A stretch of 64,000 nt of DNA from Candidatus Freyarchaeum deiterrae (GTDB lineage: Archaea; Asgardarchaeota; Jordiarchaeia; Jordiarchaeales; Jordiarchaeaceae). The DNA lies in assembly GCA_037305845.1 (NCBI GenBank), contig CP147778.1, forward strand, positions 224,001 to 288,000, given 5' to 3'. Below the pieces are notes generated by a model that saw only the letters and a list, made by a program, of their open reading frames with translations, had not been told where the DNA came from and did not search any database. Of the stretch, positions 22,369 through 59,225 are shown piece after piece. Position 1 is the stretch's first letter, and each line of letters opens with the position of its first letter. A program made the translations under genes and the position numbers.

Positions 22369-23247
22369 ATGAATTATAAAGACGAAGAAGATGATAAGGA
22401 AGAAAACAACGAAGAAGAAGAAGAAGAGGAAGAAGAAGAAGATTCTGATGAAGAATCCTGGGAAGATGAAGTTTTTGCAGAAGAAGAACCAGGAGAAAAC
22501 GAAACCGAGGATGAAGCAAGCCTAAGACTGCTAATAGTCCTACTGGACGACAGAAACGATAAAGAGCGCGCAAACGCGGTAGAGGCTATAGCAGATTACG
22601 CTACCCAAGGAATAACAGACAAGAACGCCCTACCCAAACTCGTCAAAATGCTGGACGACAAATACGAGGATGCACGCCTCAACGCTGCATTAGCCCTTTC
22701 TAATTACGCAGGTCAAGGACTCACGGATCCTTCCGCTCTACCAAAGATCGTGAAAATGCTGAATGACGACCCGGAGGTAGTAGTATTCGCCGTAACCGCC
22801 CTCGCAGCCTACGCTAACGCAGGGCTTACCGACAAGTCCACCCTACCAAAATTCGTCCAGCTACTGGATGACGACGAAATACGCATGTTCGCCCTAACCG
22901 CCCTAGCCGCATACGCCTCCAAAGGACTCCCAGACAAAACCGCACTACCCAAACTCACACCACTGCTCGACGACAGCGACGAAGGAATACGAATGTACAC
23001 CCTAGCCACAATCGGAGCCTACGCCCAAGCAGGAGCCACAGACAAAACCATACTACCAAAAATAGTAGAACTACTAGAAGACGGATACGTCTGCACACAA
23101 GCCTCAGAAACACTCGGCAAATACGCAGAAAAAGGACTCACAGACAAAAACGCCGTACCCAAACTCAAAGAACTCCTAAAAGACGAAGAATACCACGACA
23201 AAGCCCAAAACGCCCTCGACAAATACGCAGAAAAAGGACTCAAATAA
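22369..23247 (+). CDS. HEAT/ARM-repeat protein with acidic N-terminal tail
   Basis: About six ~38-aa repeats (ALPKLVKMLDD...R..A..AL..YA..GLTD); poly-Glu/Asp N-terminus. Confidence 0.9.
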   Translation: MNYKDEEDDKEENNEEEEEEEEEEDSDEESWEDEVFAEEEPGENETEDEASLRLLIVLLDDRNDKERANAVEAIADYATQGITDKNALPKLVKMLDDKYEDARLNAALALSNYAGQGLTDPSALPKIVKMLNDDPEVVVFAVTALAAYANAGLTDKSTLPKFVQLLDDDEIRMFALTALAAYASKGLPDKTALPKLTPLLDDSDEGIRMYTLATIGAYAQAGATDKTILPKIVELLEDGYVCTQASETLGKYAEKGLTDKNAVPKLKELLKDEEYHDKAQNALDKYAEKGLK

Positions 23248-23459
23248 ATAAACAACTCAACAAGCCAAAGTGAAACACCCACAAAACCCAAAAACAAGTC
23301 CACCCAATGAGCAACAACACCAGAAGCGTGAACACGAGGCAAAAGCTTCCAGTCAACTCTTCACTTACTTCACTTAACTTTTTTATTTTAACAGGAAATT
23401 AGTTTAGTTAACAGACACACATGTGTGTATGTATGTATTTTATCGTGGGACTGAGAGGT

Positions 23460-24407
23460 ATGGATAAAGAATTAAGAAAAAAGTTGAGCGAGGAACAACA
23501 GGACACAGTGGAAAAGGTTGAAAGTACCCTGGAGGGAGTTGCCGAGATTGAGGACTGGGAATTCGAAGACCAGGTCCTAAGGCTCTTCTCAGACTCGAAC
23601 CTAACCCTCCACATCGACTTTGAAAGCAAGAACCTCTACCTCTACTCCGAGGACAACTACGGCGCATCCGCCCCCCAAGGCGAAACAGTAGAAGAAGTAG
23701 CCAACTGGTTCCGAATGTACGCCGACCAAATGGAGAAAGAACACAAAAAAATGCTGGACCTGGGCTTCGCCCCGGAAAACGTGGAACACGAAGACGTATC
23801 CGACATATTCTGCCTCTACAGCAAAGCCTACCCCCTCGACCAGTTAGACGACCTGACGAAAGACCTGAAAAAACTCAACCAACTATGGGACGAGACGGAG
23901 AACGAGTGGAAAAAACTCTACCCGGGAACCCAAGACGCTGAAGACCAGAAAAACTACGAGTACGAAGACGAAGAAAACCTGATGGAACTCGTGGAACAAC
24001 TAGGAGACCAGGACAAACAATCACGAATGAACGCACTAATAGCCATAGGAGACTACGCCTGCGACGGACTCACAACCAAAACCGCCCTACCAAAACTAGT
24101 AGAACTACTGGACGACCAAGACACAGAGATAAGAATGAACGCATTGTACGCACTCGGAGACTACGCCACCGAAGGACTCACAGTTGAAACCATACTACCA
24201 AAACTCACAAAACTACTCGACGACCAAGACGAAAGAGTACGCAGCGGAGCAGCATACGCCCTAGCCACCTACGCCACCAAAGGACTCACAATCAAAACAG
24301 CCCTACCGAAACTCGCAAAACTACTAAAAGACAAAAGCGAGGAAACAAGAGACTACGCAGCGTACGCCCTCGACGAGTACGATGAAAAGGGACTAAAACC
24401 CACATAG
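23460..24407 (+). CDS. Acidic N-terminal domain plus HEAT repeats (paralogous repeats to 22369)
   Basis: About 4 repeats LPKLVELLDDQD..IRMNALYALGDYA..GLT; GAGGT RBS before ATG 23460. Confidence 0.88.
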   Translation: MDKELRKKLSEEQQDTVEKVESTLEGVAEIEDWEFEDQVLRLFSDSNLTLHIDFESKNLYLYSEDNYGASAPQGETVEEVANWFRMYADQMEKEHKKMLDLGFAPENVEHEDVSDIFCLYSKAYPLDQLDDLTKDLKKLNQLWDETENEWKKLYPGTQDAEDQKNYEYEDEENLMELVEQLGDQDKQSRMNALIAIGDYACDGLTTKTALPKLVELLDDQDTEIRMNALYALGDYATEGLTVETILPKLTKLLDDQDERVRSGAAYALATYATKGLTIKTALPKLAKLLKDKSEETRDYAAYALDEYDEKGLKPT

Positions 24408-38767: not shown

Positions 38768-40612
38768 ATGGGATTGAAGGTGGCAGATTTTTTCTGTGGT
38801 GCGGGTGGCTTTTCCGAAGGTTTCAGACAGATGGGATTTGAGATAGTTTATGGGACTGACATATGGCCACATGCAGTAGAGACTTTTCGAAAGAACTTCC
38901 CTGAGGCTGATGTACCAGACCCTATCGACATATTAGACATAGAGATAAAAGACTTACCTGATGTAGATGTGATAATTGGCGGTCCCCCCTGTACTTTTTT
39001 CTCTCCATCAAATAACGGTGGGAATGGCAATACCGACAAAGGTATGAGACTGGTAAAAGGGTTTCTAAAGATAATAGATGAAATGAACCCTAAATGGTGG
39101 ATAATGGAGAATGTTCCAAGACTATCACTGACTTTACCTAAAAGCATCTCTCTCTATGATTCAGCGATTGGGAAGAAAGACAAGTGTTTCGAAATACCAA
39201 ATAGAAATGTATTGAACGCTGCAGATTATGGGGTACCTCAAGGAAGAAAAAGACTTTTCGTAGGGAACTATCCATCGCCTAAGCCGTCCCACTCAGACAA
39301 AGGAGAAGGAGGAACGGAGCAATGGAGACTGATGCGGGATGTTATAGAAGGCCTGCCTTATCCACTGGACGAAGAGAACAGTAGTAATGTTAACGACCCC
39401 CTCTACACAGGAATCACATTGGATTGTGATGAATTCACTGAACATAGGTACGATACCTTCCTTACAAAGATAGAGGTAGAAGAAGCGAAGAGATTGAAAA
39501 CCAGACACAGGTATTATGGAAAGATAAACTTCCCGGACGATATCGACAGACCAGCAAGGACCGTTATGGCTTCGATTAGCAGAACAAGCAGAGAGATGAT
39601 GGTTATTAAAGAGAATAGAGGTAGTAAGGAAGGATATAGGATTCCGACCTTACGGGAATGTGCCTCCCTTCAATCTTTCCCTATTACCTACCAGTTTTGG
39701 GCTCAGAACATCTCTCCGAAATACAAATTGGTAGGCAACGCTGTCCCTCCCATGTTATCGAGGGCGATAGCTAGAGCGATACTGATTGTTGAAGGACGTA
39801 CCCCTCCAGATGAACCAATTATTCGAAAGAAAGTGACCGAGATACCTGAAGTTCTACCTGTTGATGCAATCTCCAGAGGAAGGCTAAGAACCAATTATCG
39901 CCTCAACAGACATTATTGCGACTTCATAGATCATCATGCCAACCATTCAAGAACTGGTTGCCGTATAGATATTGATAACGAAGGTAAGCGGCCAAAAGAA
40001 CACCCTATGTATAGTGGAAAACATGGTTGGAGGAGAAAAGTGATACGGCATATCAAGGAATGGAGGTGCGTCCTATATACTGGGTACGCTAAGAATGCCG
40101 AGAACATGGTAGTTTCTTTGAAAGATGCTTTGAGCTTATTGAATGACAGCAACCCACTAGAGTTCAATAAAAAGATGACTTGCATCATTGACGATATTAT
40201 TAATAAAAAGATACATGAGATACCAGACGCAACAACGTGCCAGGGTATATTGTCGGGTAAGGTCAAGGGCATAAAGGAGAGCCCCCTTTGGATTAGAAAA
40301 ATGTTGACGAAAATCGTAAATGATAATTTTCCTGAAAAAGAAAAAACAACGAACAAAATCAAAGATTATGGACGTATCCATGTCAGATCGGAAATAATGT
40401 TAACTCAGAGAGATGCAGCACAGTTGATAATAGCAGCTCTTACATGTGCCGTGATGAATGAGAGCGATGTATGGTTATTAGAGAACTGGGGTAAGCACTT
40501 TTGGTTGAAGGAATGGCCAGTAATTGAGAAACTCCCTTACAAAGAATCTAAATGGGTAAAAAAAATCGAGGGAAAAATAAAGATGCATAAATGGTCAGGC
40601 GATACGAATTGA
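38768..40612 (+). CDS. DNA (cytosine-5) methyltransferase, DrmMII-like role, with ~270-aa C-terminal extension
   Basis: Motif I DFFCGAGG, IV GGPPC, VI ENV, VIII PQGRKR, IX RECASLQSFP, X VGNAVPP. Confidence 0.95.
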   Translation: MGLKVADFFCGAGGFSEGFRQMGFEIVYGTDIWPHAVETFRKNFPEADVPDPIDILDIEIKDLPDVDVIIGGPPCTFFSPSNNGGNGNTDKGMRLVKGFLKIIDEMNPKWWIMENVPRLSLTLPKSISLYDSAIGKKDKCFEIPNRNVLNAADYGVPQGRKRLFVGNYPSPKPSHSDKGEGGTEQWRLMRDVIEGLPYPLDEENSSNVNDPLYTGITLDCDEFTEHRYDTFLTKIEVEEAKRLKTRHRYYGKINFPDDIDRPARTVMASISRTSREMMVIKENRGSKEGYRIPTLRECASLQSFPITYQFWAQNISPKYKLVGNAVPPMLSRAIARAILIVEGRTPPDEPIIRKKVTEIPEVLPVDAISRGRLRTNYRLNRHYCDFIDHHANHSRTGCRIDIDNEGKRPKEHPMYSGKHGWRRKVIRHIKEWRCVLYTGYAKNAENMVVSLKDALSLLNDSNPLEFNKKMTCIIDDIINKKIHEIPDATTCQGILSGKVKGIKESPLWIRKMLTKIVNDNFPEKEKTTNKIKDYGRIHVRSEIMLTQRDAAQLIIAALTCAVMNESDVWLLENWGKHFWLKEWPVIEKLPYKESKWVKKIEGKIKMHKWSGDTN

Positions 40613-43600
40613 CGAAAGCGGAAGTAAGAAAGCAACTAGTTAAGAACTTGGAAAGAGATTTGCTTGGCCCAAAGAAAGGGCCGGATGAAGAATTCATGGA
40701 ACTACCCACACAACGATATGTAATTGGTATTCTTTTCCCTTCAAGTACACCGATAGGTCCAGAACAGGACATAAACAATCCTCCTGAAGGGGAGGACGAT
40801 GAAGAATATAGCCCGATGTATAGAACTCCCCTTGAAAACGAGCTCCGTCCCTCGTCCATGGGAATGTCGTTCATCGTTGATAAGAATATTACATCACTGC
40901 CCGTCGAGATAAGATGGGCGACATATATACAAAAAGAAGAATATGGTTCTTTCAGGCGGTGTGAACACACAGTCTCTATGGAACTTGATGTATCTGCCGA
41001 TGACCTCAAGGGGGATGAGCCTCTTTACAGAAAAGATATGGCTGATGCTAAAGAATTCAGAGTGTTCTGGAGGACATACAGAGGAGAGAAGGAAGATCGT
41101 CCTGTTAGCGTCTTTCTCTGGAACAAGGAAACTACTTCATCGAACAAAGCGGAGCTGTCCCAGCGATGTATGTTCTCTCCTTCAATAAGGATAGAGTTCA
41201 AAGACAGGTTCATCATCGCAAGAAAGAGGATGACGATTGCCAGTGAGGAGGAGGATTTGAAATCCCTAAATCTCCTTTATCATGATAGACATGAGTTCGG
41301 CGTTGGTCATGGTTGTTCAATAATGTGGATGGATGTACAGGGGAACCGCTGTGGGCTCATTGAGACGACATTCATGCCAACGTATCATTGGCAACCCTTG
41401 TCGTTTAGGGAGGAAGAATATCCTTTTTATATGAAGAATATGTCAGAAAAAAAAAGGAAAGAACAAATCCAGGAAGAACTTGAACTGTTAAAGTCTTATG
41501 AGGAGTGGATATCTGGAACGTTCTCTGAAGTTGAGAAGAATCAATTAGAGCCTATGTTCCACGAGACCTTTGACAGACATAAGAATGAATGCATGACATC
41601 CCTCGTCAGGATTAAAAAGGGCATCGAACTGTTAGAAGATGACCAAGTTTTCAACGCATTCTGCTTTATGAACGAAGCGATGTTCCTTCAAAGGGCATAT
41701 TACGACGCTGCTGTTGAATATAGAAAAGAGGGCAAAAAGTTCAAAGATCCTTCTCTCACAGATTCGAAGGTAATCGCGAAGCATAGATGGAGACCGTTCC
41801 AAATCGCTTTCATTCTACAGGCCATCCCAGGGATTGTGAATCCCAACGATGATGATCGAAAGATTGTAGACCTTCTCTGGATTCCTACAGGAGGAGGTAA
41901 GACAGAGGCGTATCTAGGTCTTGCCGCCTTTACTATGGCATACAGGAGGCTAAAAAGCAAGGCGCTAGAAGACTATGCAGGTGTTAGCGTCATGATGAGA
42001 TACACGCTACGCCTCTTAACTATACAACAATTCCAAAGAGCCGGAGCTTTGATGTGCGCTTGCGAAGCCATCAGGGACAAGAACAAAGCTAAATGGGGTG
42101 AAATTCCGTTCCTTGTTGGACTTTTCGTCGGTCAAAGCACCACTCCGAACATCATAGGTAAAAAGAATGATTATGTCAAGTACAATGAAGACGGATGGAA
42201 AAACAAAAATTGTGAAGATACTGCATATTATGCATTGGAATATTGGAAAAAGGAACATCAGAAACCTACGGGTAGTAATCCTTTCCAATTGTTATACTGT
42301 CCTTGGTGCGGTGAGGAGCTTACTGAAAAGAGCTATACGATTGACGATGAAAAACAAAATGTAATCACACATTGCGTTCGAGACGGGTGCCTTTTCAAAC
42401 TTCTGGAAATCCCTGCGATAACAGTAGACGAAGATGTATACAATCGCCTCCCCTCTATGGTCATAGGCACAGTTGACAAATTCGCCATGCTCCCGTTCAG
42501 CCCCAAAATAGGTAAAATGTTCGGGCACGTAGACAGGTACTGCCCTACACATGGCTTTCTCTGCCGAACCGAGAATCATTCAGATTCGCATAAGAGCGGT
42601 GTGCAAGTGCGTTCAATAAGGAATCCGCTTAACCCGCCTAATCTGATTATACAGGATGAACTGCACCTTATCAATGGGCCGTTGGGTAGCATGGTCGGCA
42701 TTTATGAAAGTACAGTAGATAGGCTTTGTTCCAGAAATATTGGAACTGTTATCGTAAAGCCTAAGGTCATCGCGTCGACTGCAACAATACGAAGAGCAAG
42801 GGATCAGGTCTGGAACATCTTCGCAAGGGATGTCAAGCGTTTCCCTGCTCCTGGGACCGAGTTCTCAGATTCTTTCTTCGTTAAGGAAGTCCAAGATGAT
42901 AACAATGCCAAGCAATTCATAGGTGTTTTCCCCTCGGGGATAGGTCAGAAAACCGTAATGAAGAGAACGTTATCCAGCCTTCTATTATCTGCGTTGGAAT
43001 TTAATAAGAAAGGTTCACCAGTGGAGGACTGGGACGAATATTGGACCTTGGTTTCCTATTTCAATAGTATCCGCGAACTTGGCAGTGCTAAGACAACAAT
43101 CGAGGACGATGTTAACAGTGCTGTTAAAGAAAGGAGAAAAATATTACCAATCGATGAACTTACAAGCAGAATCAACTCTAAGGATTTACCATCCATTTTG
43201 GCAAAACTTAACATCAGAGGGGACACTGACAAAGCCGTCAACATCTTGGCATGTTCCAACATGTTCTCGGTCGGTGTCGACGTCCAGCGACTTGGGTTGA
43301 TGGTAATGAACAACCAGCCAAAAGCGACATCAGAATACATCCAATCTACAGGGAGGGTAGGAAGGAACAAGTCAGGGTTGGTCATAGTGTTATATAATTG
43401 GGTGAGACCAAGGGATCAATCACATTATGAAAGGTTCTATGATTACCATAACAGGATACAATCATATGTGGAAGCCATGACCGTGACCCCGTTCTCAGAA
43501 GGCGCTAGTGAACGCGCCCTGCATGCCCAATATGTGAGCATGATAAGGATATTGAGCGATGCGCAATTGTCACGCCAGTCAGAAGCAGGTAATTTCAATT

Positions 43601-43929
43601 CTGTAATAAGGTGCTCCTCAGCCAGCCGTGCGTATGAAGAGTGGTTAGAGGAGCGAATGAAGACTGTCACAGGGGAAAGTAGTGGAGACCTGAAAGAAAG
43701 GCTGACGAAATTTCTAGATAAATGGATTGATTGGGTCGATTTAGTAGGGAAAGAACTATGTTATGAAAAAGGCCAGTACGGTCAGTGCAGAAACTACCTA
43801 TTGAGGAGAATAGACGATGTCCGTCAACCGGAAGACGGAGGCCTTAAAAAATTGACCCCTACCTCAATGAGGAACGTTGAGCAACAAGTGCCGTTACATA
43901 GGGTGAAAATACCAAGGTCGGGAAGGTGA
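40591..43929 (+). CDS. drmA: DISARM helicase DrmA
   Basis: Motifs WRPFQIAF, PTGGGKTEAYLG, RYTLRLLTIQQFQRA, CPWCG, IQDELHL, SEYIQSTGRVGR. Confidence 0.93.
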   Translation: MVRRYELTKAEVRKQLVKNLERDLLGPKKGPDEEFMELPTQRYVIGILFPSSTPIGPEQDINNPPEGEDDEEYSPMYRTPLENELRPSSMGMSFIVDKNITSLPVEIRWATYIQKEEYGSFRRCEHTVSMELDVSADDLKGDEPLYRKDMADAKEFRVFWRTYRGEKEDRPVSVFLWNKETTSSNKAELSQRCMFSPSIRIEFKDRFIIARKRMTIASEEEDLKSLNLLYHDRHEFGVGHGCSIMWMDVQGNRCGLIETTFMPTYHWQPLSFREEEYPFYMKNMSEKKRKEQIQEELELLKSYEEWISGTFSEVEKNQLEPMFHETFDRHKNECMTSLVRIKKGIELLEDDQVFNAFCFMNEAMFLQRAYYDAAVEYRKEGKKFKDPSLTDSKVIAKHRWRPFQIAFILQAIPGIVNPNDDDRKIVDLLWIPTGGGKTEAYLGLAAFTMAYRRLKSKALEDYAGVSVMMRYTLRLLTIQQFQRAGALMCACEAIRDKNKAKWGEIPFLVGLFVGQSTTPNIIGKKNDYVKYNEDGWKNKNCEDTAYYALEYWKKEHQKPTGSNPFQLLYCPWCGEELTEKSYTIDDEKQNVITHCVRDGCLFKLLEIPAITVDEDVYNRLPSMVIGTVDKFAMLPFSPKIGKMFGHVDRYCPTHGFLCRTENHSDSHKSGVQVRSIRNPLNPPNLIIQDELHLINGPLGSMVGIYESTVDRLCSRNIGTVIVKPKVIASTATIRRARDQVWNIFARDVKRFPAPGTEFSDSFFVKEVQDDNNAKQFIGVFPSGIGQKTVMKRTLSSLLLSALEFNKKGSPVEDWDEYWTLVSYFNSIRELGSAKTTIEDDVNSAVKERRKILPIDELTSRINSKDLPSILAKLNIRGDTDKAVNILACSNMFSVGVDVQRLGLMVMNNQPKATSEYIQSTGRVGRNKSGLVIVLYNWVRPRDQSHYERFYDYHNRIQSYVEAMTVTPFSEGASERALHAQYVSMIRILSDAQLSRQSEAGNFNSVIRCSSASRAYEEWLEERMKTVTGESSGDLKERLTKFLDKWIDWVDLVGKELCYEKGQYGQCRNYLLRRIDDVRQPEDGGLKKLTPTSMRNVEQQVPLHRVKIPRSGR

Positions 43930-45680
43930 TTTTTATTAACGAGATGAGACCAAGCAAATTGATAATGACCTTTGGACCTGGATCTATAGTCGATTTTCCA
44001 GATAGGGAATCTTACATCGTGATGGGACCAGATTATTGGAAGTCACATGAAACGATACAAGAACCTAGACTTGCTAAGAAATTGGATTGCGACCATTTTG
44101 GTTCGCCCCAAAAGAGATGGGACGACAAATCCCATTTTTTTGTGGGCATCGCCGTCCGTGATTTCCCTCATATGAGGGTATGTCCATCTTGCGGTAAGCT
44201 TTCATATGAGTTCCGTTGCAAGGATTGTAAGGGATCTGAAGATGAAAAAGGCCCTAAGACGATGCCTCCGAGACTCGTCGCCGCTTGTAAGGGTGGTCAT
44301 ATCCAAGATTTTCCATGGAAAGCGTGGTGCGGTTGCACTTGCAACCGTAATGATGCACGGTTGTTCCTAATCGGAGAGAGTATAGAGGCGGAAGGTTCGG
44401 ATTTGAAAGTCGTATGTAAAAATTGTAGGAGCGAGAGGAATTTGATGCTGGCACTAGGGCAGTTGAAATACAGTTGCAATGGGGAACGGCCGTGGTTAGG
44501 CGATGAAGAGACCTGTTCGGAAAAACTATATGGGCTGATGAGAGGGGCGAGCAATGTTTACTTCCCAGTGATTGAGAGCTCTTTAAGCATACCACCTTAC
44601 TCAACAGAGATACATAAGGATGTAGAAAAGCATATGGACGCTGCTAGGGCAAACTGGGTTAACAATAACATTAAAGGGTACATCGAAAATAATGATGAAC
44701 TGAAAAAGTACATCGAAGATGGGAAATACACCGAAAATCAACTTATAAGGGCTTTCGGCGAGAAATTTGGAGGGCCTTCCTCCATCGATATAAAAGGGGA
44801 GGAGTGGGACCGGCTCGTTCACGATGTAAAATACGGTCCAAACGATGATTTCCAGACAAAAAGTATTGACATAACCGGCTCCAATCTCGATAAATGGTTC
44901 GCCCGCATCGTACTTGTTACAAAACTGCGCGAGGTCGTCGCAGTGACTGGTTTCAATAGAGTGGAACCAAACAATCCTGACACGAAACAAAAATTGAGGA
45001 TGGAGATGGAGAACTGGTCGGATTTCCTTAATAATCATCCGGATATAAGTCCTAGTCTGGACATCGAAATATCTAGAAATTGGCTACCAGGTGTAGAACT
45101 GTTCGGTGAAGGTATCTTCTTCAAGTTTAAAGAGTCCATGGTCAATAGATGGAATGGTGACTCAGCTAATATTAAACGTTGCAAACGGATAATCTCGCAG
45201 CCGAAACAACCCTTCAAAAAGGAAGGAGTAGACCTCACCGACGAGCGGACAATCCTTGTGCATACCTTCGCTCACCAGTTCATTCGTCAAATATCACTAG
45301 AATGCGGTTATTCTATGGCGTCTCTAAAGGAAAGACTTTATGTTAGGAGAAGTGATGAAAGGGACATGTGCGGTGTCCTTATTTACACAGCCTCGTCAGA
45401 TAGTGAAGGAACCCTAGGTGGACTAGTAGCACAAGCAAAGGACAGCAGAACCCTTCTTGGTCATATCTCAAGTATAATCGATTCCGTAAGGTTTTGTTCT
45501 CAAGATCCATTATGCGGAACACATGAACCGACCACTACGAAAAACCCATGGGGAGCCTCATGCCATTCATGTTCCCAATTGCCTGAGACCTCCTGCGAGG
45601 GACTACAGAACAAACTATTAGACCGTTTCACATTGATAAGCAATGATGAAGTGACGGGATATTTCGATGACAGTCTATAA
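43926..45680 (+). CDS. drmB: DISARM DUF1998 protein DrmB
   Basis: Motifs RPSKLIMTFGPGS, C..GHIQDFPW, RGASNVYF, HTFAH...ECGYS..SLKERLY, CSQDPLC...CHSC...ETSCE; GTGA overlap with drmA. Confidence 0.93.
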   Translation: MIFINEMRPSKLIMTFGPGSIVDFPDRESYIVMGPDYWKSHETIQEPRLAKKLDCDHFGSPQKRWDDKSHFFVGIAVRDFPHMRVCPSCGKLSYEFRCKDCKGSEDEKGPKTMPPRLVAACKGGHIQDFPWKAWCGCTCNRNDARLFLIGESIEAEGSDLKVVCKNCRSERNLMLALGQLKYSCNGERPWLGDEETCSEKLYGLMRGASNVYFPVIESSLSIPPYSTEIHKDVEKHMDAARANWVNNNIKGYIENNDELKKYIEDGKYTENQLIRAFGEKFGGPSSIDIKGEEWDRLVHDVKYGPNDDFQTKSIDITGSNLDKWFARIVLVTKLREVVAVTGFNRVEPNNPDTKQKLRMEMENWSDFLNNHPDISPSLDIEISRNWLPGVELFGEGIFFKFKESMVNRWNGDSANIKRCKRIISQPKQPFKKEGVDLTDERTILVHTFAHQFIRQISLECGYSMASLKERLYVRRSDERDMCGVLIYTASSDSEGTLGGLVAQAKDSRTLLGHISSIIDSVRFCSQDPLCGTHEPTTTKNPWGASCHSCSQLPETSCEGLQNKLLDRFTLISNDEVTGYFDDSL

Positions 45681-46458
45681 AAGAACATCATTGGAAAGGT
45701 TAGCTGATTTGGCAACCAAGATAAAGATAACTCTATCCCCTGAGAAAACCACGATGTTCTTGAAGATGTTGGAAGAAAGAGGCTTCACACATCCGACATC
45801 ATTCGATATAGATAGACTAGGTCTCCCGCCAAACAAAGCTGATTTGTTAAAAAGGTACATCGGAAGCATTGAGAAAAAGGAAGAATTAATTGCAATCTCA
45901 TTATCCCTTTTAGATGACACAAAATCAGAGTCCTCATCCCCAATGGAAGTATGTTGGACAGGTCCTTCAGAAAATCGGCATATACGCATGACATGGCCTG
46001 CTCTTTCGGAGATGCTGTTATCTGCTGAGAAAAGCATACTTATAATCGGTTATGCAATCAACGCCAACATGAGAAGCTTAATGGACTATCTGGAAGAGAA
46101 ATCTAAATCCGGTGTGAGGCTGGTTTTTATGATGGATAGATTGAAAGAGAAAGAGGATTTCCTTTGCTGGGCCAAGGGGCTACCTCAACCACCAGAACTC
46201 TATGATAGACCCGAAGACCCAGAAGACCCTATGTCCGCGCTTCACGTCAAATGCGTGGTTGTCGACGAGAAAGTAGCTATGTTCGGATCAGCGAACTTAA
46301 CATATCATGGCATGAAGGGAAATATAGAGTTAGGTCTAGTATTACACGATGAGAAAATCGTCAAAAACATAGTAGATTTATTAGAGGGGTTAAAAAAGGA
46401 ACTGGTCAGATTCAACCTGTCCGAATATAGAGCGAACAGCAATGTTGGAAATAGTTGA
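45667..46458 (+). CDS. drmC: DISARM phospholipase-D nuclease DrmC
   Basis: WTGP, a single HKD motif LHVKCVVVD, GSANLT..G...NIELG; overlaps drmB. Confidence 0.92.
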   Translation: MTVYKRTSLERLADLATKIKITLSPEKTTMFLKMLEERGFTHPTSFDIDRLGLPPNKADLLKRYIGSIEKKEELIAISLSLLDDTKSESSSPMEVCWTGPSENRHIRMTWPALSEMLLSAEKSILIIGYAINANMRSLMDYLEEKSKSGVRLVFMMDRLKEKEDFLCWAKGLPQPPELYDRPEDPEDPMSALHVKCVVVDEKVAMFGSANLTYHGMKGNIELGLVLHDEKIVKNIVDLLEGLKKELVRFNLSEYRANSNVGNS

Positions 46459-50695: not shown

Positions 50696-50871
50696 TTTAA
50701 GAAGCGGACTACGATCTCTCTCTCTCTCTCTTTCTGATGCTATTAAAAAGGAGTTGTTGCGGGAGATGGCTAGGTTACAGTTGAAGTGGGGGAGAAAGGT
50801 GGATTTTGAGGATGTTATAATGAACCTGGTTCTTCAGGGAAGAAGAAGGCCTGAACTATTGGAAGAGGCTT
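50696..50871 (+). pseudogene. VapB-like RHH antitoxin remnant, frameshifted in a (TC)8 tract and cut by a mini-element
   Basis: KKRTTISL / LSDAIKKELLREMARLQLKWGRKVDFEDVI...RRPELLEEA split across frames at 50715-50730; ends at the element boundary 50872. Confidence 0.65.
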
Positions 50872-51086
50872 CTGACATACTCCCCACCTTGAAAGGTTGG
50901 GGGTTCTACACTTCTGTTGTTAGAAGTGTGGGGGGCGTGTCACCGCCCGGTTAATGGCTTCCGCACCTTCTTCTTCGTCGGGTGAGCAAGCCCTATTATT
51001 TTTTTTCCTCTTTTTTCGGTATTTAAACTCCAAGCAATTCATTCCCGCCTTAAAGGGACCGGGGCTTTCTTGCCAATCATCTTTAG
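50872..51086 (-). mobile_element. Non-autonomous IS200/IS605-family mini-element, copy 1, with omega-RNA-like scaffold
   Basis: Minus strand: TTAC target, left end with AAAG and subterminal hairpin, TTTAAATA, structured region, GAAC-CCCCAACC-TTTCAA-GGTGGGG hairpin, terminal TCAG. No ORF. Confidence 0.85.
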
Positions 51087-51227
51087 GTAATTAAAAATTC
51101 AGGGTGCTTCTTACCTATTTCTTGAACGAAGGGAATTCATAAAGTCTATAATAATTTCAGATTTCTTGGTTTCAAATTAACTCTTCATGTGTTTCTTGTC
51201 GCTCTTTTACTTCTTCTTCTTTAATGC

Positions 51228-51599
51228 TTAGGGGTCATGAATTTCGAAATGTAAGTTTTTGCCATCCAAGACGATTTTAAAATTATTTAATATGTCTCTT
51301 CCAATAATTACTTCGTCTTGAGGTAATGCCACAACTTCTATAAACTCGAGCAAGAAATTGTTGAAATCTACATTAATATAGTAGGTCCATTCTTTAACTA
51401 GCCTTCCATAGACATCAATGTAATCTTTTTTTCTAACTTTTTGCAGACCGAGTTCAGCTATTAAGTTACTCGGAATGGCGGTGTCATCTGCACCTGTATC
51501 TAGGATTCCGTAATATTGTACATTATTACCAGAGATTGGGTTAAATATTGTCACTTTGATAGTTGGGGCTGGTGGATCTTTTATTGTGTCATATTTCAA
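51228..51599 (-). CDS. Retropepsin-like (clan AA) aspartyl protease
   Basis: Motifs GILDTGADDT and IIGRDILN. Confidence 0.9.
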   Translation of the reverse strand: MKYDTIKDPPAPTIKVTIFNPISGNNVQYYGILDTGADDTAIPSNLIAELGLQKVRKKDYIDVYGRLVKEWTYYINVDFNNFLLEFIEVVALPQDEVIIGRDILNNFKIVLDGKNLHFEIHDP

Positions 51600-51600
51600 A

Positions 51601-51858
51601 TTAGAGTCTCCTTGGGGCTGGCAGTCTAGCGGGTTTTTTTCCGTTTACTTTGTCCATGTAGATTGGGAGATAGCCATATTTTGTGTAGACTCTTTTTGCA
51701 AGTCTTATCTTATCCTCATCTGAGTCAATCACTTTTTCATTTAAAATAGCCACGTATTTACCCTTATACTTGTTGAGGAGACCCGTTTCTTGCATCTTCT
51801 CGAAGGCAAGTCTTTCCTTTTCAATATTTTGTAAACTTGTATCCACATTCTCTTTCAT
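51601..51858 (-). CDS. DUF5678-family protein
   Basis: LLNKYKGKYVAILNEKVIDSDED; directly upstream of the aspartyl protease. Confidence 0.8.
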   Translation of the reverse strand: MKENVDTSLQNIEKERLAFEKMQETGLLNKYKGKYVAILNEKVIDSDEDKIRLAKRVYTKYGYLPIYMDKVNGKKPARLPAPRRL

Positions 51859-52098
51859 AGAATATTCCTCGGGAAATTTATAAGAGGCGTCAACATAACT
51901 GCGCAAATAATTCAAATACTTTAATCCTTTTCCTTAATTCGGAGCCAGAAAGTTGCAAGTGATTCCTAGTTAGGATAAAGATGCGAATTCATTCTCAAAG
52001 GATGAACTAAAACCTGACTCTGATATAATAAATCGCGCCTCAAGTCTTTTTTTATTTATCGTATAGATAAAAGTTTTGTGTTCTGCATTTCTTAATAG

Positions 52099-52317
52099 CT
52101 GACATACTCCCCTCCTTGAAAGGTTGGGGGTTCTACACTTCTATGTTATTGTTGTTAGAAGTGTGGGGGGCGTGTCACCGCCCGGTTAATGGCTTCCGCA
52201 CCTTCTTCTTCGTCGGGTGAGCAAGCCCTATTATTTTTTTTCCTCTTTTTTCGGTATTTAAACTCCATGCAATTCTTCCCCGCCCTAAGGGGACCGGGGC
52301 TTGCTAATCATCTTTAG
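52099..52317 (-). mobile_element. IS200/IS605-family mini-element, copy 2
   Basis: Near-identical to copy 1 with the same TTAC/TCAG boundaries; small insertion in one loop and a 4-nt deletion at the left-end AAAG. Confidence 0.85.
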
Positions 52318-52521
52318 GTAATTAAAAATTCGGGGTGCCTCTTACCTATTTCTTGAACGAAGGAAATTCATAAAGTATGATCTCATTTGTGGAGGGGGGC
52401 TTTTGATCTTGAGAGAAGGTATGCTTGGTTCATAATTTACCAGTAATATATATGGTTAAAATCTAGTTTGTGTGAGAAGAATTGGGTTGCTGTTGGGGAT
52501 TTTGTTTAGGGCTGGGTGCTG

Positions 52522-52962
52522 TTAGTATGGTATGGCTTTTGGGTTGAAGTACCATTTTTTTCCATCCTTTTTTAGGCTGTATTTTCCTTTGATTTCTTGG
52601 TAGATTTGTTTGGCTTTTTCCCATGTTCCGTCGTCTCTTAGTGGGATTCCTTCTAGGATGGCGTCTAGGATTACGAAGCTTGGTCTTCTTACTGTTTCTT
52701 CGAGTTCTTTTCGGGTGTAGATGAGTGCTTGGAGGGGGAACTGTGCGTGTTTGCTTATTGCTTTTTGGCGGTTGAGCCAGTTTCGGGGGAGGTTTCTGCA
52801 AACGATTATCATGTCCACGTCGCTGTGCTGGGTTGCGAGGTTTTTCGCGTGGCTTCCGAAGACGACAGCGGTTCTCAGACCGTGAGCCTGGTCAACTTCT
52901 TCTAGGAATTTCTCTATTTTTTCAGCGTATTTCTCCAGTGATGCGAGACCTGCAGTACTCAA
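52522..52962 (-). CDS. Minimal nucleotidyltransferase (MNT) antitoxin
   Basis: VVFGSHAK...HSDVDMIIV (GS...DxD); start approximate and overlapping the HEPN gene. Confidence 0.85.
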   Translation of the reverse strand: MSTAGLASLEKYAEKIEKFLEEVDQAHGLRTAVVFGSHAKNLATQHSDVDMIIVCRNLPRNWLNRQKAISKHAQFPLQALIYTRKELEETVRRPSFVILDAILEGIPLRDDGTWEKAKQIYQEIKGKYSLKKDGKKWYFNPKAIPY

Positions 52963-53311
52963 CAATTCTTTCAGCACTCTTAACCGCCTCCTCAGCCATT
53001 TTCTTAGTGTAATGGTCGGATGGTGTACCCGAAGCAAAAGCGTCGGGATATCTTGAGGGAATATAGTGATGGTCAAGCTCTTTTGCGAGGTCAACTAGCT
53101 CCTCTGGAGCGTTTGTTTCTTCAACCATTTCGCCTACCGTGTGTCCCCTTACTTCCACTCCTCGGAACTGGAGAAGAGCCTTTACAGCCTTCTCGGCGGC
53201 GGCCTGCTGCGATGTAAAACACGCCCACTCGTAGTCTCCTTCGGAGAGGTCTCTTTTCGCCTTCGCCAAATCCCTCTCTGCTTGACGCAACCAGTCTAGG
53301 TGCCGCTTCAC
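52922..53311 (-). CDS. HEPN-domain protein
   Basis: Motifs WLRQAERDL, YEWACF.SQQAAAEKAVKA, GHTV, YIPSRYPD. Confidence 0.93.
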   Translation of the reverse strand: MKRHLDWLRQAERDLAKAKRDLSEGDYEWACFTSQQAAAEKAVKALLQFRGVEVRGHTVGEMVEETNAPEELVDLAKELDHHYIPSRYPDAFASGTPSDHYTKKMAEEAVKSAERIVEYCRSRITGEIR

Positions 53312-53470
53312 GATTATCCCTCAAAACAGTTTCCTTATGCATTTTCACTGATGCTTTTAGAAGCCGAGTGTTATAAGCTTTCGTGTTCTATTCAGTAGTC
53401 TTCTTTTTTTAATCGTTTTTCTTCGTGCTCTTGCAGTTTGGTTTCCAATATGAGCGTATCTTTCTCGTCT

Positions 53471-53680
53471 CTGACATACGCCCCACCTTGAAAGGTTGAG
53501 GGTTCTACACTTCTGTTGTTAAAAGTGTGGGGCGTGTCACCGCCCGGTTAATGGCTTCCGCACCTTCTTCTTCGGGTGAGCAAGCCTTATTATTTTTTTT
53601 CCTCTTTTTTCGGTATTTAAACTCCATGCAATTCATTCCGGCCTTAAAGGGACCGGGGCTTTCTTGCTAATCATCTTTAT
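53471..53680 (-). mobile_element. IS200/IS605-family mini-element, copy 3
   Basis: Near-identical to copies 1 and 2; homology ends exactly at TTAC (plus-strand GTAA 53681-53684) and TCAG (plus-strand CTGA 53471). Confidence 0.85.
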
Positions 53681-53758
53681 GTAAGAATCGTTCCAGAAAT
53701 TCGTCAGTGAGGACTATCCTGTAGGATTCTCCGAATGGACCCGTTTTTTATCCTTTTT

Positions 53759-55198: not shown

Positions 55199-55624
55199 CT
55201 AGTGTATTTCTTGTCCGCACAATCCACAGTAACTGGCTCCTTCAATTATTTCAGCTCCGCAATGGGGGCATTTTGTAGATGTCGATTGTATAGTCGGGGC
55301 CTTACCGTCTCTGAGCATGTTGGATAATCCCAGGGCGACCAACATAGCTTTTTTTCCTTCGTAAGTGATTGTGAATTTTCCTTTCTTAGAAACGTCTATT
55401 AGGATTTTGTATCGCTCCTGACCAAACCAATAAACTGCCGCCAACGCCGGGGACAATGGAACCAATCCAGCGGCAACTGCTTTGCTACCAGGCCGGCCAT
55501 CCATTGCTTCCAGTGTGTTGTCCATTTGATTAAGACGGTATCCCAATTGTGTTAAGCGACTGCAGCATAATGTCATTATTTCGTCTGGCGAATAATTCGT
55601 TTCATAACTAAAACTTTTTGAAAT
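55199..55624 (-). CDS. Zinc-ribbon membrane protein family, paralog A (start uncertain)
   Basis: KGKFTITYEGKKA...KCPHCG...YCGLCG; homology to the paralogs extends upstream of ATG 55576 to about 55624. Confidence 0.7.
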   Translation of the reverse strand: MSKSFSYETNYSPDEIMTLCCSRLTQLGYRLNQMDNTLEAMDGRPGSKAVAAGLVPLSPALAAVYWFGQERYKILIDVSKKGKFTITYEGKKAMLVALGLSNMLRDGKAPTIQSTSTKCPHCGAEIIEGASYCGLCGQEIH

Positions 55625-55947
55625 TGCAAACCTCTCCTTTCATTCATTAATCCTCAATTTAATCCGCTTATTATTTTTAAAATATTTAAATTTTTAGGTA
55701 TCGGCATTGGTGCGGATTGAGAAGAAAAATGGGAAAAGGCGTTGAGTTTAATCTTCCTTTTTTTATGCGGTTTTTTGGACAGTGTGATTAATTGGTTCTT
55801 TATATCAAAATCATGATTGGTGGTGTGTTGTGGAGCTTTTTTATTTGCTGTATTGGGGTGTCTTGATTTGGCTGATTTTTATTCTTTTTGATTTGGTTTT
55901 TCTGTTTTAGATTACTTTTTACTTTTCAATATTTGCCTTTTCTAGTT

Positions 55948-56403
55948 CTAGTGTATCTCTTGTCCGCATTCTGCGCAGTAACTGGCTCCTTCTATTATAT
56001 GGAATCCGCAATTAGGACATTTTGTAGATGATGATTGTACTGTCTGGGCTTCGCTACTTCTGAGCATATTGGATAATCCTAGGGCGTCCTCAGTGGCTTT
56101 TTTGCCTTCATACATGATTGTGAATTTTCCTTTATTAGTGATGTCTATTATGATTTTGTTTTGCGTTCGAGTGAACCAATAGACGAGAATAGCTATCACG
56201 CCTATCAAGGTAATTGTTAAGATACCTATGACACATAAAATGATAGCCCCTGTACTGTAATCCCGGCCGTCAGTTGCTTTTAGTAAGTTTCCCTCTTGCT
56301 TAACATAGTATCTCCCTCTTAAGCGACTGCTGCATTCTGCTATTATTTCATCTCGCGAATAATCGGTTTCATAGCTTAAACTCATTAGGATCACAACCTC
56401 CAT
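55948..56403 (-). CDS. Zinc-ribbon membrane protein family, paralog B
   Basis: TM hairpin, KGKFTIMYEGKKA, KCPNCG...YCAECG. Confidence 0.8.
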   Translation of the reverse strand: MEVVILMSLSYETDYSRDEIIAECSSRLRGRYYVKQEGNLLKATDGRDYSTGAIILCVIGILTITLIGVIAILVYWFTRTQNKIIIDITNKGKFTIMYEGKKATEDALGLSNMLRSSEAQTVQSSSTKCPNCGFHIIEGASYCAECGQEIH

Positions 56404-56839
56404 ATTCGTTAACTGGTCCTGCATCTATGGTTAGGGGATGCCTGTTGAGAAAAGTCACGGAAAGAGTTGAAATTATTCTTCTCAGGAAACCATTTATCTT
56501 TCCTTTTTACCTTGATCCTTTCATCTCCGCCTTGATTTTTCGAATCCCCATTAAATGTTAGTCTCCGAAAAAATTGTTATTGAACTCTGGCTATTATTAA
56601 TCCGTTCGTATTATCTTTAAAGCTATATAAATTTTTAGCTAGCGGCTGATATTAAATTGAAAAAAAAGGAAATTGAGTTATTTTCTACTGCCAAGAAGTG
56701 AAATTGTCTTTCGATGTGGAGGTAAAGGCTCTTATCTTGTTTTTAACTATTCCAACCGAGATTTTATTGTTTTGTTTAATTTTTGGATTTTTTGGCGTGG
56801 CTTATTTTTTCTTTTTGATTTTTTTCTGTTTTGGATAGG

Positions 56840-57328
56840 TTACTTTTTAGTTTTCGATTTCCGCGTCGAGCGTGATATGTCTTGTCCGCATTCTGCACAG
56901 TAACCGGCTCCTTCTAATATCTCGGCTCCGCAATTTGGGCAGTTTATAGATCATGATTTTGTTTCTGTCTCATCAAATTCGCCACTTCTGAGCACATTTG
57001 ATAATCCTAGGGCTAAATCGGTGGCTTTTTTGCCTTCATATGTGATTGTGAATTTTCCTTTTGTAGACATGTCTATTATGATTTTGTTTTGCGTTCGAGT
57101 GAAATAATAGGCTAGTAAGACTATCAAACCTATTATCAAGGTAAAAAGGCAGAGTATGACACATGCAACGATGATTCCTGTGCTGTAGTCTCGGCCATCC
57201 GTTGATCTTACTAAGTTTCCTTCCTGCCTCGTGTGGAATCCTGATTTTGGTAAGCGGCTATTGCATTCTGCTACTATTTGGTCTCGTGTATAATCTGTTT
57301 TATAAGTAAGACTCGTTAGAATCACCAA
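56840..57328 (-). pseudogene. Zinc-ribbon membrane protein family, paralog C, with in-frame TGA before the zinc ribbon
   Basis: After TGA at 56953-56951 the same frame continues SINCPNCGAEILEGAGYCAECGQDISRSTRKSKTKK* to 56840. Confidence 0.8.
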
Positions 57329-57574
57329 CCTCTCTACTCATTAACTAATTCTCAATTTAATCCAGTTTATTATTTTTTAGACTATATAAATATTTAGCTG
57401 AGGGCAATGATGCCTATTGAGAAGAAAAACGGGAAAATTCAAAGCACAATTTAAGCCTTTTTTCTGCGGTTGTTTGGATAGTATGATTAATTGCCTCGTC
57501 TATCTCAAAATATTCATTGGGACGTAGAGTTGGAGGTGGTGTTTTTACTTGCTGTATTCGGGTTTTGACTCTAG

Positions 57575-57919
57575 TTAGTTTAATTTTTCTCCGCAGCTTG
57601 GGCAGTAATTTACTGTCTCGTGTAGCCCGTAGCCGCAGTATGTGCAGACTTCTTCTTTTGCTTTCGGAGAGGTTAGCGTCTTGAATAGATTCACTGCGTC
57701 TTCTAAGGCCTTTTTTCCTTCGAAGGTTATGGTGAATTTTCCTTTTGTTGTAGCATCCACCTTAATCTTGTTATCTTTTTCATCGGGCATGTTTGCTTCT
57801 ATTACGTTACCCTTTGTGTCGGTTTCGTATCCCTTCTCTTTTAGGTAATCCCCGGATACTGTTATTACTTCATTCTGTTTGTATCCTGTTTTATAATTTA
57901 GACTCATTGGGATTTTCAC
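57575..57919 (-). CDS. Zinc-ribbon family, paralog D (lacks the TM segment)
   Basis: KGKFTITFEGKKA...CTYCG...YCPSCG; hydrophobic hairpin missing. Confidence 0.8.
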   Translation of the reverse strand: MKIPMSLNYKTGYKQNEVITVSGDYLKEKGYETDTKGNVIEANMPDEKDNKIKVDATTKGKFTITFEGKKALEDAVNLFKTLTSPKAKEEVCTYCGYGLHETVNYCPSCGEKLN

Positions 57920-58766: not shown

Positions 58767-59099
58767 ATGTCAGAAGTAGCAAAGAATGGTGACACAGTCC
58801 GTGTGCACTACGTGGGGAAATTCCCCGGTGGAAAAGTATTTGATACATCCATGGAGAAAGAAGCGATCCGCGCCGGCATAGCCCAAAAAGGGCGGGATTA
58901 CAAGCCTCTTACAGTCAAGTTAGGCTCTGGGCAGGTCATAAAGGGGTTTAACGACGCGATTATCGGAATGAAGAAAGGGGAGGAGAAGACGGTTACCCTT
59001 CCTCCTGAACAAGCGTACGGGAAAACAGGCAAACATCCCATGGCCGGCAAGACTCTGCAATTCAAACTCGTCTTAGTTGACATCGTTCCTGGAAAATAG
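58767..59099 (+). CDS. FKBP-type peptidyl-prolyl isomerase (short)
   Basis: Motifs GDTVRVHYVG, VFDTS, GQVIKGF, PPEQAYG, HPMAGKTLQF. Confidence 0.93.
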   Translation: MSEVAKNGDTVRVHYVGKFPGGKVFDTSMEKEAIRAGIAQKGRDYKPLTVKLGSGQVIKGFNDAIIGMKKGEEKTVTLPPEQAYGKTGKHPMAGKTLQFKLVLVDIVPGK

Positions 59100-59225
59100 T
59101 TGAGACACGGGTATAAGAGACCGTGTGCGAAGACCCGCGTGGTAAGAATCAAGCAACCCTACGAGAGTAGAGCGTGTCACCGCTCCGTTTCTGGCTTCCG
59201 CACCATCAGTGTGAGCCAGCCTTAT
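59100..59225 (-). ncRNA. Diverged homolog of the mini-element RNA scaffold
   Basis: Shares GGCT.GCTCAC...GGTGCGGAAGCC and the GAGCG-GTGACA-CGCTC hairpin with copies 1-3; the 3' half is different. Confidence 0.55.

Follow-up and report, generated by a model that had tools for sequence, protein, structure and literature searches.

The 64,000-nucleotide stretch of DNA analysed here (the window: positions 224,001 to 288,000 of contig CP147778.1, from the Asgard archaeon Candidatus Freyarchaeum deiterrae) carries on its minus strand three non-coding mini-elements of about 210 bp, E1, E2 and E3, in which the two ends of an IS200/IS605-type transposon enclose a TATA-like box and the predicted scaffold of an omega-RNA, the guide RNA used by the nuclease TnpB. 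They occupy positions 50872-51086 (E1, 215 bp, with its right end inside a vapB-like gene), 52099-52317 (E2, 219 bp) and 53471-53680 (E3, 210 bp), exactly where a preliminary description of this DNA had placed them, and score 122.8, 118.7 and 125.7 bits, respectively, with a covariance model of the family. Directly 5' of each copy stands the motif TTAC (51087-51090, 52318-52321 and 53681-53684), which is the target and left cleavage site and also the predicted transposon-associated motif (TAM). The left end of E3 comprises the left guide AAAG and a subterminal hairpin (53638-53662), an end also found in the two tnpB elements described below; the corresponding hairpin lies at 51045-51068 in E1, again with AAAG, and at 52280-52300 in E2, where the hairpin stands alone. 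The archaeal TATA-like box TTTAAATA follows at 53614-53621 (E3), 52255-52262 (E2) and 51020-51027 (E1), and its distance to the first helix of the scaffold, given earlier as about 25 nt, measures 27 nt.

The scaffolds themselves span 53471-53590 (E3, 120 nt), 52099-52231 (E2) and 50872-50996 (E1). Every part attributed to them beforehand is present: in E3, a GGCTT/AAGCC helix (P1, 53553-53586), a GGGCG-GTGACA-CGCCC hairpin whose loop supplies the pseudoknot strand TGACA (P2, 53530-53545), an ACACTT/AAGTGT hairpin (P3, 53507-53528) and a right-end hairpin with GAAC at its foot (53478-53503), followed by TGTCA (53472-53476) within the terminal TGTCAG. The 16 nt of flanking DNA beyond each right end (50856-50871, 52083-52098 and 53455-53470 for E1, E2 and E3) constitute the predicted guides, a role assigned from TnpB biology (PMC10097598), and the three guides quoted previously match the window sequence exactly. 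A fourth, degenerate copy on the same strand (59077-59225; 42.3 bits, E 1e-9) keeps P1 and P2, the latter in compensated form (GAGCG/CGCTC), and has lost its left end and suffered disruption of its right end; it gives no significant fold, and the matching site in the sister genome G002 is empty of it. An assembly artefact has been ruled out, since independent Logan contigs, 100% identical to the window, span the junctions into the elements and the stretches between them.

In the complete genome, a single contig of 3.58 Mb (3,576,204 bp), BLAST and covariance-model searches recovered eight intact mini-elements of 208-226 bp, besides three decayed copies, the degenerate copy of the window, and fragments of one right end and of three left ends. 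A lone tnpB gene lies between the same two ends in two 1.4-kb elements (C1:2434930-2436345 and C1:3247879-3249298), whose scaffolds are 86-94% identical to those of E1-E3. Each mini-element corresponds to the first ~90 nt of such a parent fused to its last ~120-135 nt, and the deletion junction falls a few bases before P1, at Asn-Ile codons just after RuvC-III, so that only about 40 terminal tnpB codons remain. Subterminal hairpins are present at both ends and terminal inverted repeats are absent. The mini-elements are thus internal-deletion derivatives of an IS1341-type tnpB element, that is, palindrome-associated transposable elements (PATEs), and the two tnpB elements with shared ends bear out the suggestion that they descend from the IS200/IS605 family through loss of open reading frames. 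An origin from IS607 elements was rejected on account of the hairpin ends and of the guide rule. One mini-element (L021, C1:85802-86027) lies some 1.3 kb past the end of a CRISPR array, to which no functional link was found.

The relationship between guides and cleavage sites established for IS608, where AAAG and GAAT specify TTAC and TCAA (PMC5934647), had been used to predict that the right guide GAAC should accompany TCAG, and the rule holds well beyond the window. Among 52 distinct right ends, the combination GAAC/TCAG occurs 32 times and GAAT/TCAA 13 times, and pairing of the variable guide base with the cleavage site is C-to-G in 35 cases, T-to-A in 13 and discordant in two. TTAC precedes all 16 left-end matches, the search pattern having required it, and most of the parent elements in other archaea. 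Insertion 3' of TTAC without target duplication is seen at the right junction of E1, which in the intact orthologue of the interrupted gene reads TTAC; the left flank of E1 being rearranged, this is the evidence of one junction only.

The transposase expected to act on such ends is a different matter. The genome-wide search proposed earlier for further copies and for a parent carrying tnpA and tnpB returned the copy family and the two tnpB parents, and no tnpA: a Y1 TnpA was found neither in the complete genome, with the Pfam profile and two TnpA queries (one from another genome of the phylum, one sitting beside a same-clade tnpB), nor in sister genome G002. Four of five sister genomes do encode a Y1 TnpA, the gene sometimes lying immediately upstream of a tnpB of the same clade, and these tnpA-tnpB loci have similar left ends of the form TTAC...CAAGAAAG. 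With no TnpA found in the genome, the copies are probably immobile now, although this lack of a resident transposase concerns their present mobility and not their origin. A paper on Asgard mobile elements mentions neither TnpB nor IS200/IS605.

The presence of a covarying scaffold with a terminal pseudoknot that ends at the right end, as the preliminary description had it, is supported by an alignment of 31 sequences comprising mini-elements and parents from several archaeal groups. As RNA, the scaffolds of E1-E3 fold with z-scores of -3.1 to -3.7, and none of 200 shuffles did as well. Across the alignment, 91% of cells are paired in the named structure and 16 of 35 pairs show double changes; the covariation score of 0.307 compares with 0.163 in shuffles and with values no higher than 0.11 in slid controls, although such scores are inflated by the relatedness of the sequences, kin not being independent. 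Pairing reaches 96-98% in P1 and P2, while P3 is under-counted through a one-column misalignment and is recovered in most sequences by an anchor-based parse. The pseudoknot between the loop TGACA and the terminal TGTCA is paired in 98.7% of cases, its variable position being A-U, G-U and once G-C, which agrees with the omega-RNA of ISDra2, where the last bases of a 116-nt scaffold form a pseudoknot (PMC10097598). The hairpins claimed for the two ends fared unevenly: folded alone as single-stranded DNA they are not significant (z -1.1 to +0.3), whereas covariation upholds them, with double changes in six of the ten pairs of the right-end hairpin. A search of Rfam with the scaffold RNA gave no match at E<=1.

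The box TTTAAATA is the parent's own tnpB promoter-like box, identical in both parents, and the deletion brings it next to the start of the omega-RNA scaffold, with a gap of 23 nt. In the intact mini-elements the box ends 23-24 nt before the scaffold start, and an archaeal start site is expected at about 23-24 nt past a TATA box. It is perfect in all eight intact copies and changed in the three decayed ones, while a given 40-nt stretch would contain it by chance with a probability of 0.003. The retention of a promoter together with a complete scaffold, as proposed earlier, therefore finds support, the promoter function being predicted from this box; a scan with a sigma-70 promoter model, which is unsuited to archaea, stayed at shuffle level. 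The gap is 22-24 nt in the mini-elements of this genome and of G002, and, as read by eye from the sequences of G003, G004 and G005, 23-25 nt in the separately derived family of G003 and 27-31 nt in three mini-elements of G004, whereas one further G004 mini-element and the G005 family have about 100 nt separating the left end from the scaffold. In this last genome the family (L207, L213, L217, L221 and L226) consists of about 80 copies of ~270 bp with an extra segment of ~75 nt before the scaffold, and the genome yields 81 scaffold matches and four tnpA matches.

It might be argued that these are inert remnants comparable to MITEs (transposable elements of miniature size with inverted repeats), mere substrates of TnpA whose promoter and scaffold were kept because of where a deletion happened to fall and today are silent or serve no use. 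The missing TnpA, the decayed copies and the Asp-to-Asn parent described below would all be in keeping with this, and terminal-only PATEs of 52 bp in Haloquadratum (PMC3119063) indicate that ends alone can suffice. Against it, a pattern search of six genomes of the genus (which recovered five of the eight intact copies of this one) found 44 left-end/right-end pairs at scaffold-length spacing (96-230 nt) and no scaffold-less mini-element, with ends 95 nt or less apart. Moreover, separate deletions do not reach past the 5' edge of the scaffold: they stop there or upstream of it, mostly 22-31 nt from a TATA-like box, and the box itself is altered only in decayed copies. The 44 to 0 ratio and the similar geometry argue for a contribution of the RNA to how successful the mini-elements are, even if the independent deletion events number only about five, and we consider inert remnants an unlikely explanation. 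A search of metagenomes from the Joint Genome Institute (JGI) for the exact mini-element junction pattern gave no match.

A TnpB that could use these RNAs in trans is encoded in the same genome. The parent at C1:2434930-2436345 presents a rearranged RuvC site with a full catalytic set (D190, G280, an alternative E328 and D362); the Gly that occupies the canonical RuvC-II position and the Glu 48 residues downstream are invariant in 33 aligned homologues. Since such a rearranged site has been shown to be active in TvoTnpB (PMC10312701), this protein is probably active too, by analogy, and the genome does contain the cognate TnpB with intact nuclease site (D190/E328/D362) on which the preliminary description depended. 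Its closest named relatives belong to Ca. Freyarchaeota and Jordarchaeum, its similarity to solved structures is weak (best E 6e-8), and no cognate TnpB was found in viral contigs. The remaining seven tnpB genes of the genome have different ends and, over long alignments, do not exceed 29% identity. Separately, four related tnpB genes of this genome (L001-L004; 68-80% identical) do not have the hairpin ends of the family and look bounded by other ends, with short tail fragments at three further sites. In a JGI metagenome, two close tnpB relatives (78-87%; L094:3095-3200 and L096:3122-3227) are interrupted inside P1, after GGGCTTG, by the same foreign DNA, possibly another element that targets the scaffold.

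The second parent (C1:3247879-3249298) is full-length and has intact ends, and its RuvC-I Asp is replaced by Asn. Its existence lends some appeal to a scheme in which this protein and the guides of the mini-elements would together form a nuclease-dead, TldR-like repressor. The substitution is unique in the alignment of 33 homologues and one transition away, so that it looks like recent decay, and the guides have no TTAC-adjacent match in their own genome above random controls (seeds of 6-9 nt against 5-10 nt); RNA-guided regulation of this kind is accordingly very improbable.

More can be said of what the guides do match. The right end of E1 interrupts a small gene whose intact orthologue survives in four sister genomes, where it encodes 86 aa with a weak match to VapB antitoxins and is followed by a PIN-domain gene. 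In the intact orthologue of G005, TTAC is followed by a sequence that matches the E1 guide at 14 of 16 positions, the right boundary of E1 being fixed at TCAG. The guide of E1 is therefore the element's own empty insertion site, as homing predicts. The empty sites of E2, E3 and four further copies were searched for and not recovered, because in the sister species the intergenic DNA has diverged too far or lacks synteny, and E1 alone yielded a junction. Every insertion site that was checked in a sister species proved to be unoccupied.

The preliminary description had gone further and seen in the elements a dispersed, mobile repertoire of guides, to be compared with co-occurring viruses. Such a repertoire could benefit the host by countering viruses or invaders of other kinds. 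The guides do differ from copy to copy, a cognate and probably active TnpB is at hand and, according to PMC10691335, stand-alone omega-RNAs can work in trans. In the suggested comparison with viruses, nevertheless, none of the three guides had an exact match to TTAC+16 nt in IMG/VR (a weak test, the viruses of this host being poorly sampled), overlap with 222 CRISPR spacers did not exceed controls, the guide of E1 is host gene sequence, and the unoccupied sites in sister species together with the lack of any mechanism for acquiring foreign guides point the same way. With guides that are simply the DNA at each insertion site, and with no TnpA found, the idea of a mobile antiviral repertoire goes unsupported and appears most improbable. 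Given one guide equal to an empty site and no viral, spacer or second genomic match for any of the guides, the repertoire is better seen as a by-product of landing sites, a pattern that fits homing rather than defence or regulation.

We therefore favour, as the probable explanation, that these PATE-type mini-elements spread through TnpA in the past and retain a promoter and omega-RNA that serve the cognate TnpB in trans, in the service of homing. This explanation builds on the observed anatomy, parentage, deletion point, shared ends, insertion at TTAC, covariation and one empty site. An internal deletion would have taken out almost all of the tnpB gene of an IS1341/IS605-family transposon and left non-autonomous derivatives, which a Y1 TnpA supplied in trans would have spread by single-strand peel-and-paste, inserting them 3' of TTAC without target duplication and cutting the right end after TCAG, before TnpA was presumably lost from the genome. 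With the TATA promoter joined to the 5' edge of the scaffold, each copy can probably make an omega-RNA, likely of ~135-150 nt and with the last ~16 nt taken from its own right flank. A start set by the box would make unnecessary most of the 5' processing to which TnpB subjects its own mRNA (PMC10278001). Once loaded onto the TnpB of C1:2434930-2436345, such an RNA would direct the cutting of TTAC plus flank, a sequence that exists only where the element is absent, and a chromosome that bears the element would then serve as repair template, so that the copy is restored or spreads. There is good support for a promoter together with an omega-RNA meant for a TnpB acting in trans; transcription, loading in trans, cleavage and homing are inferred.

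Several observations weigh against this explanation. Decay is visible in several copies of the mini-element, and E2, as had been overlooked, has no left guide AAAG. The mini-elements of this genome and of G002 may stem from one deletion event. On the side of the RNA, besides the effect of kinship on the covariation scores, the pseudoknot shows a single double change, its TGTCA strand doubles as the DNA cleavage site, and scaffold conservation in the parents could come in part from overlap with the tnpB frame. Finally, with no TnpA found here or in G002, excision, and hence the substrates of homing, may no longer arise. A more far-reaching scenario is that selection in this archaeal genus favours mini-elements in which the TATA box of the parent stands right where the omega-RNA begins. 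They would be cheater homing units, living off a single active TnpB and remaining functional after loss of TnpA, for instance by converting empty alleles that arrive from other strains. Such a scenario seems rather unlikely; if true, it would assign to stand-alone omega-RNAs a role that can be tested and that does not depend on excision.

Every testable PATE feature is present here except a resident TnpA. Like the PATEs first defined in Haloquadratum walsbyi from IS605-type transposons (PMC3119063), the mini-elements are non-coding, possess subterminal palindromes without terminal inverted repeats, cause no target duplication, derive from an IS605/IS1341 element by core deletion and form a homogeneous multi-copy family. 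They differ from them in residing in an Asgard archaeon and in always combining the left end, the TATA box and a full omega-RNA, terminal-only forms not having been found. Meers et al. (2023) reported that PATEs often encode omega-RNAs that need TnpB in trans and proposed homing at the excision joint (PMC10055086). As in their ISGst PATEs of Geobacillus stearothermophilus, the omega-RNA would here rely on a TnpB from other elements; those PATEs, however, inhabit a bacterial host with TnpA, whereas ours accompany an archaeal rearranged-RuvC TnpB, with no TnpA found, and are known from sequence only. Altae-Tran et al., as summarised in PMC10691335, describe stand-alone omega-RNAs as mobilised effector-less loci that were shown to work in trans and whose role is stated to be unknown. 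As effector-less loci that share a genome with effector loci the mini-elements resemble these OMEGA counterparts, while their scaffold family has no Rfam match and their activity in trans is predicted. TvoTnpB (PMC10312701) and the Glu-to-Gly RIIr clades, as PMC10691335 presents them, likewise have Gly in place of the canonical RuvC-II residue and an alternative Glu, and the ISDra2 omega-RNA (PMC10097598) resembles ours in pairing the final bases of a ~120-nt scaffold with an upstream loop as a pseudoknot. The predicted TAM, TTAC, differs from the TGAC and TTGAT of the TvoTnpB and ISDra2 comparison systems.

PATEs with trans-acting omega-RNAs having been published, in Meers 2023 and in Altae-Tran 2023, the elements described here constitute a well-preserved example and no new principle. 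Their value lies in forming a clean natural set, which brings together a probably active TnpB with rearranged RuvC site, a dead copy and eight compact omega-RNA loci predicted to be self-promoted, in a complete Asgard genome for which metatranscriptomes have been published. For a TnpB clade that has yet to be characterised, the set delimits a minimal scaffold of ~120 nt and provides a predicted TAM, TTAC. It also allows a direct test of the role of stand-alone omega-RNAs, described as unknown in PMC10691335.

E1 and E2, whose scaffolds are 99% identical, share a left flank of 59 bp on the minus strand (51087-51145, with a second copy at 52318-52376; 95% identical) that has no third site in the genome and shows the same arrangement in independent Logan contigs. 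The remainder of the vapB-like gene interrupted by E1 and its PIN partner were not found at the site or elsewhere in the genome. The shared flank and the truncated gene suggest a duplication plus an element-associated adjacent deletion. That the three-copy cluster began as a simple composite transposon was rejected, because what lies upstream of the TTAC of E3 is not the missing half of the vapB-like gene.

Between the copies (51228-53311) lie small two-gene modules, one with HEPN and nucleotidyltransferase genes reminiscent of toxin-antitoxin systems and one pairing DUF5678 with a retropepsin-like aspartyl protease, in a region that is not syntenic in sister species. Elsewhere in the window, genes for a C5 methylase, a helicase, a DUF1998-like protein and a phospholipase D-like protein (38768-46458) fit DISARM class II, a system reported in Freyarchaeia (PMC11529989). 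Four tandem paralogous genes for small membrane or zinc-ribbon proteins occupy 55199-57919, and two blocks of coding repeats of 102-108 nt (units of 34-36 aa) are located at 22574-24407.

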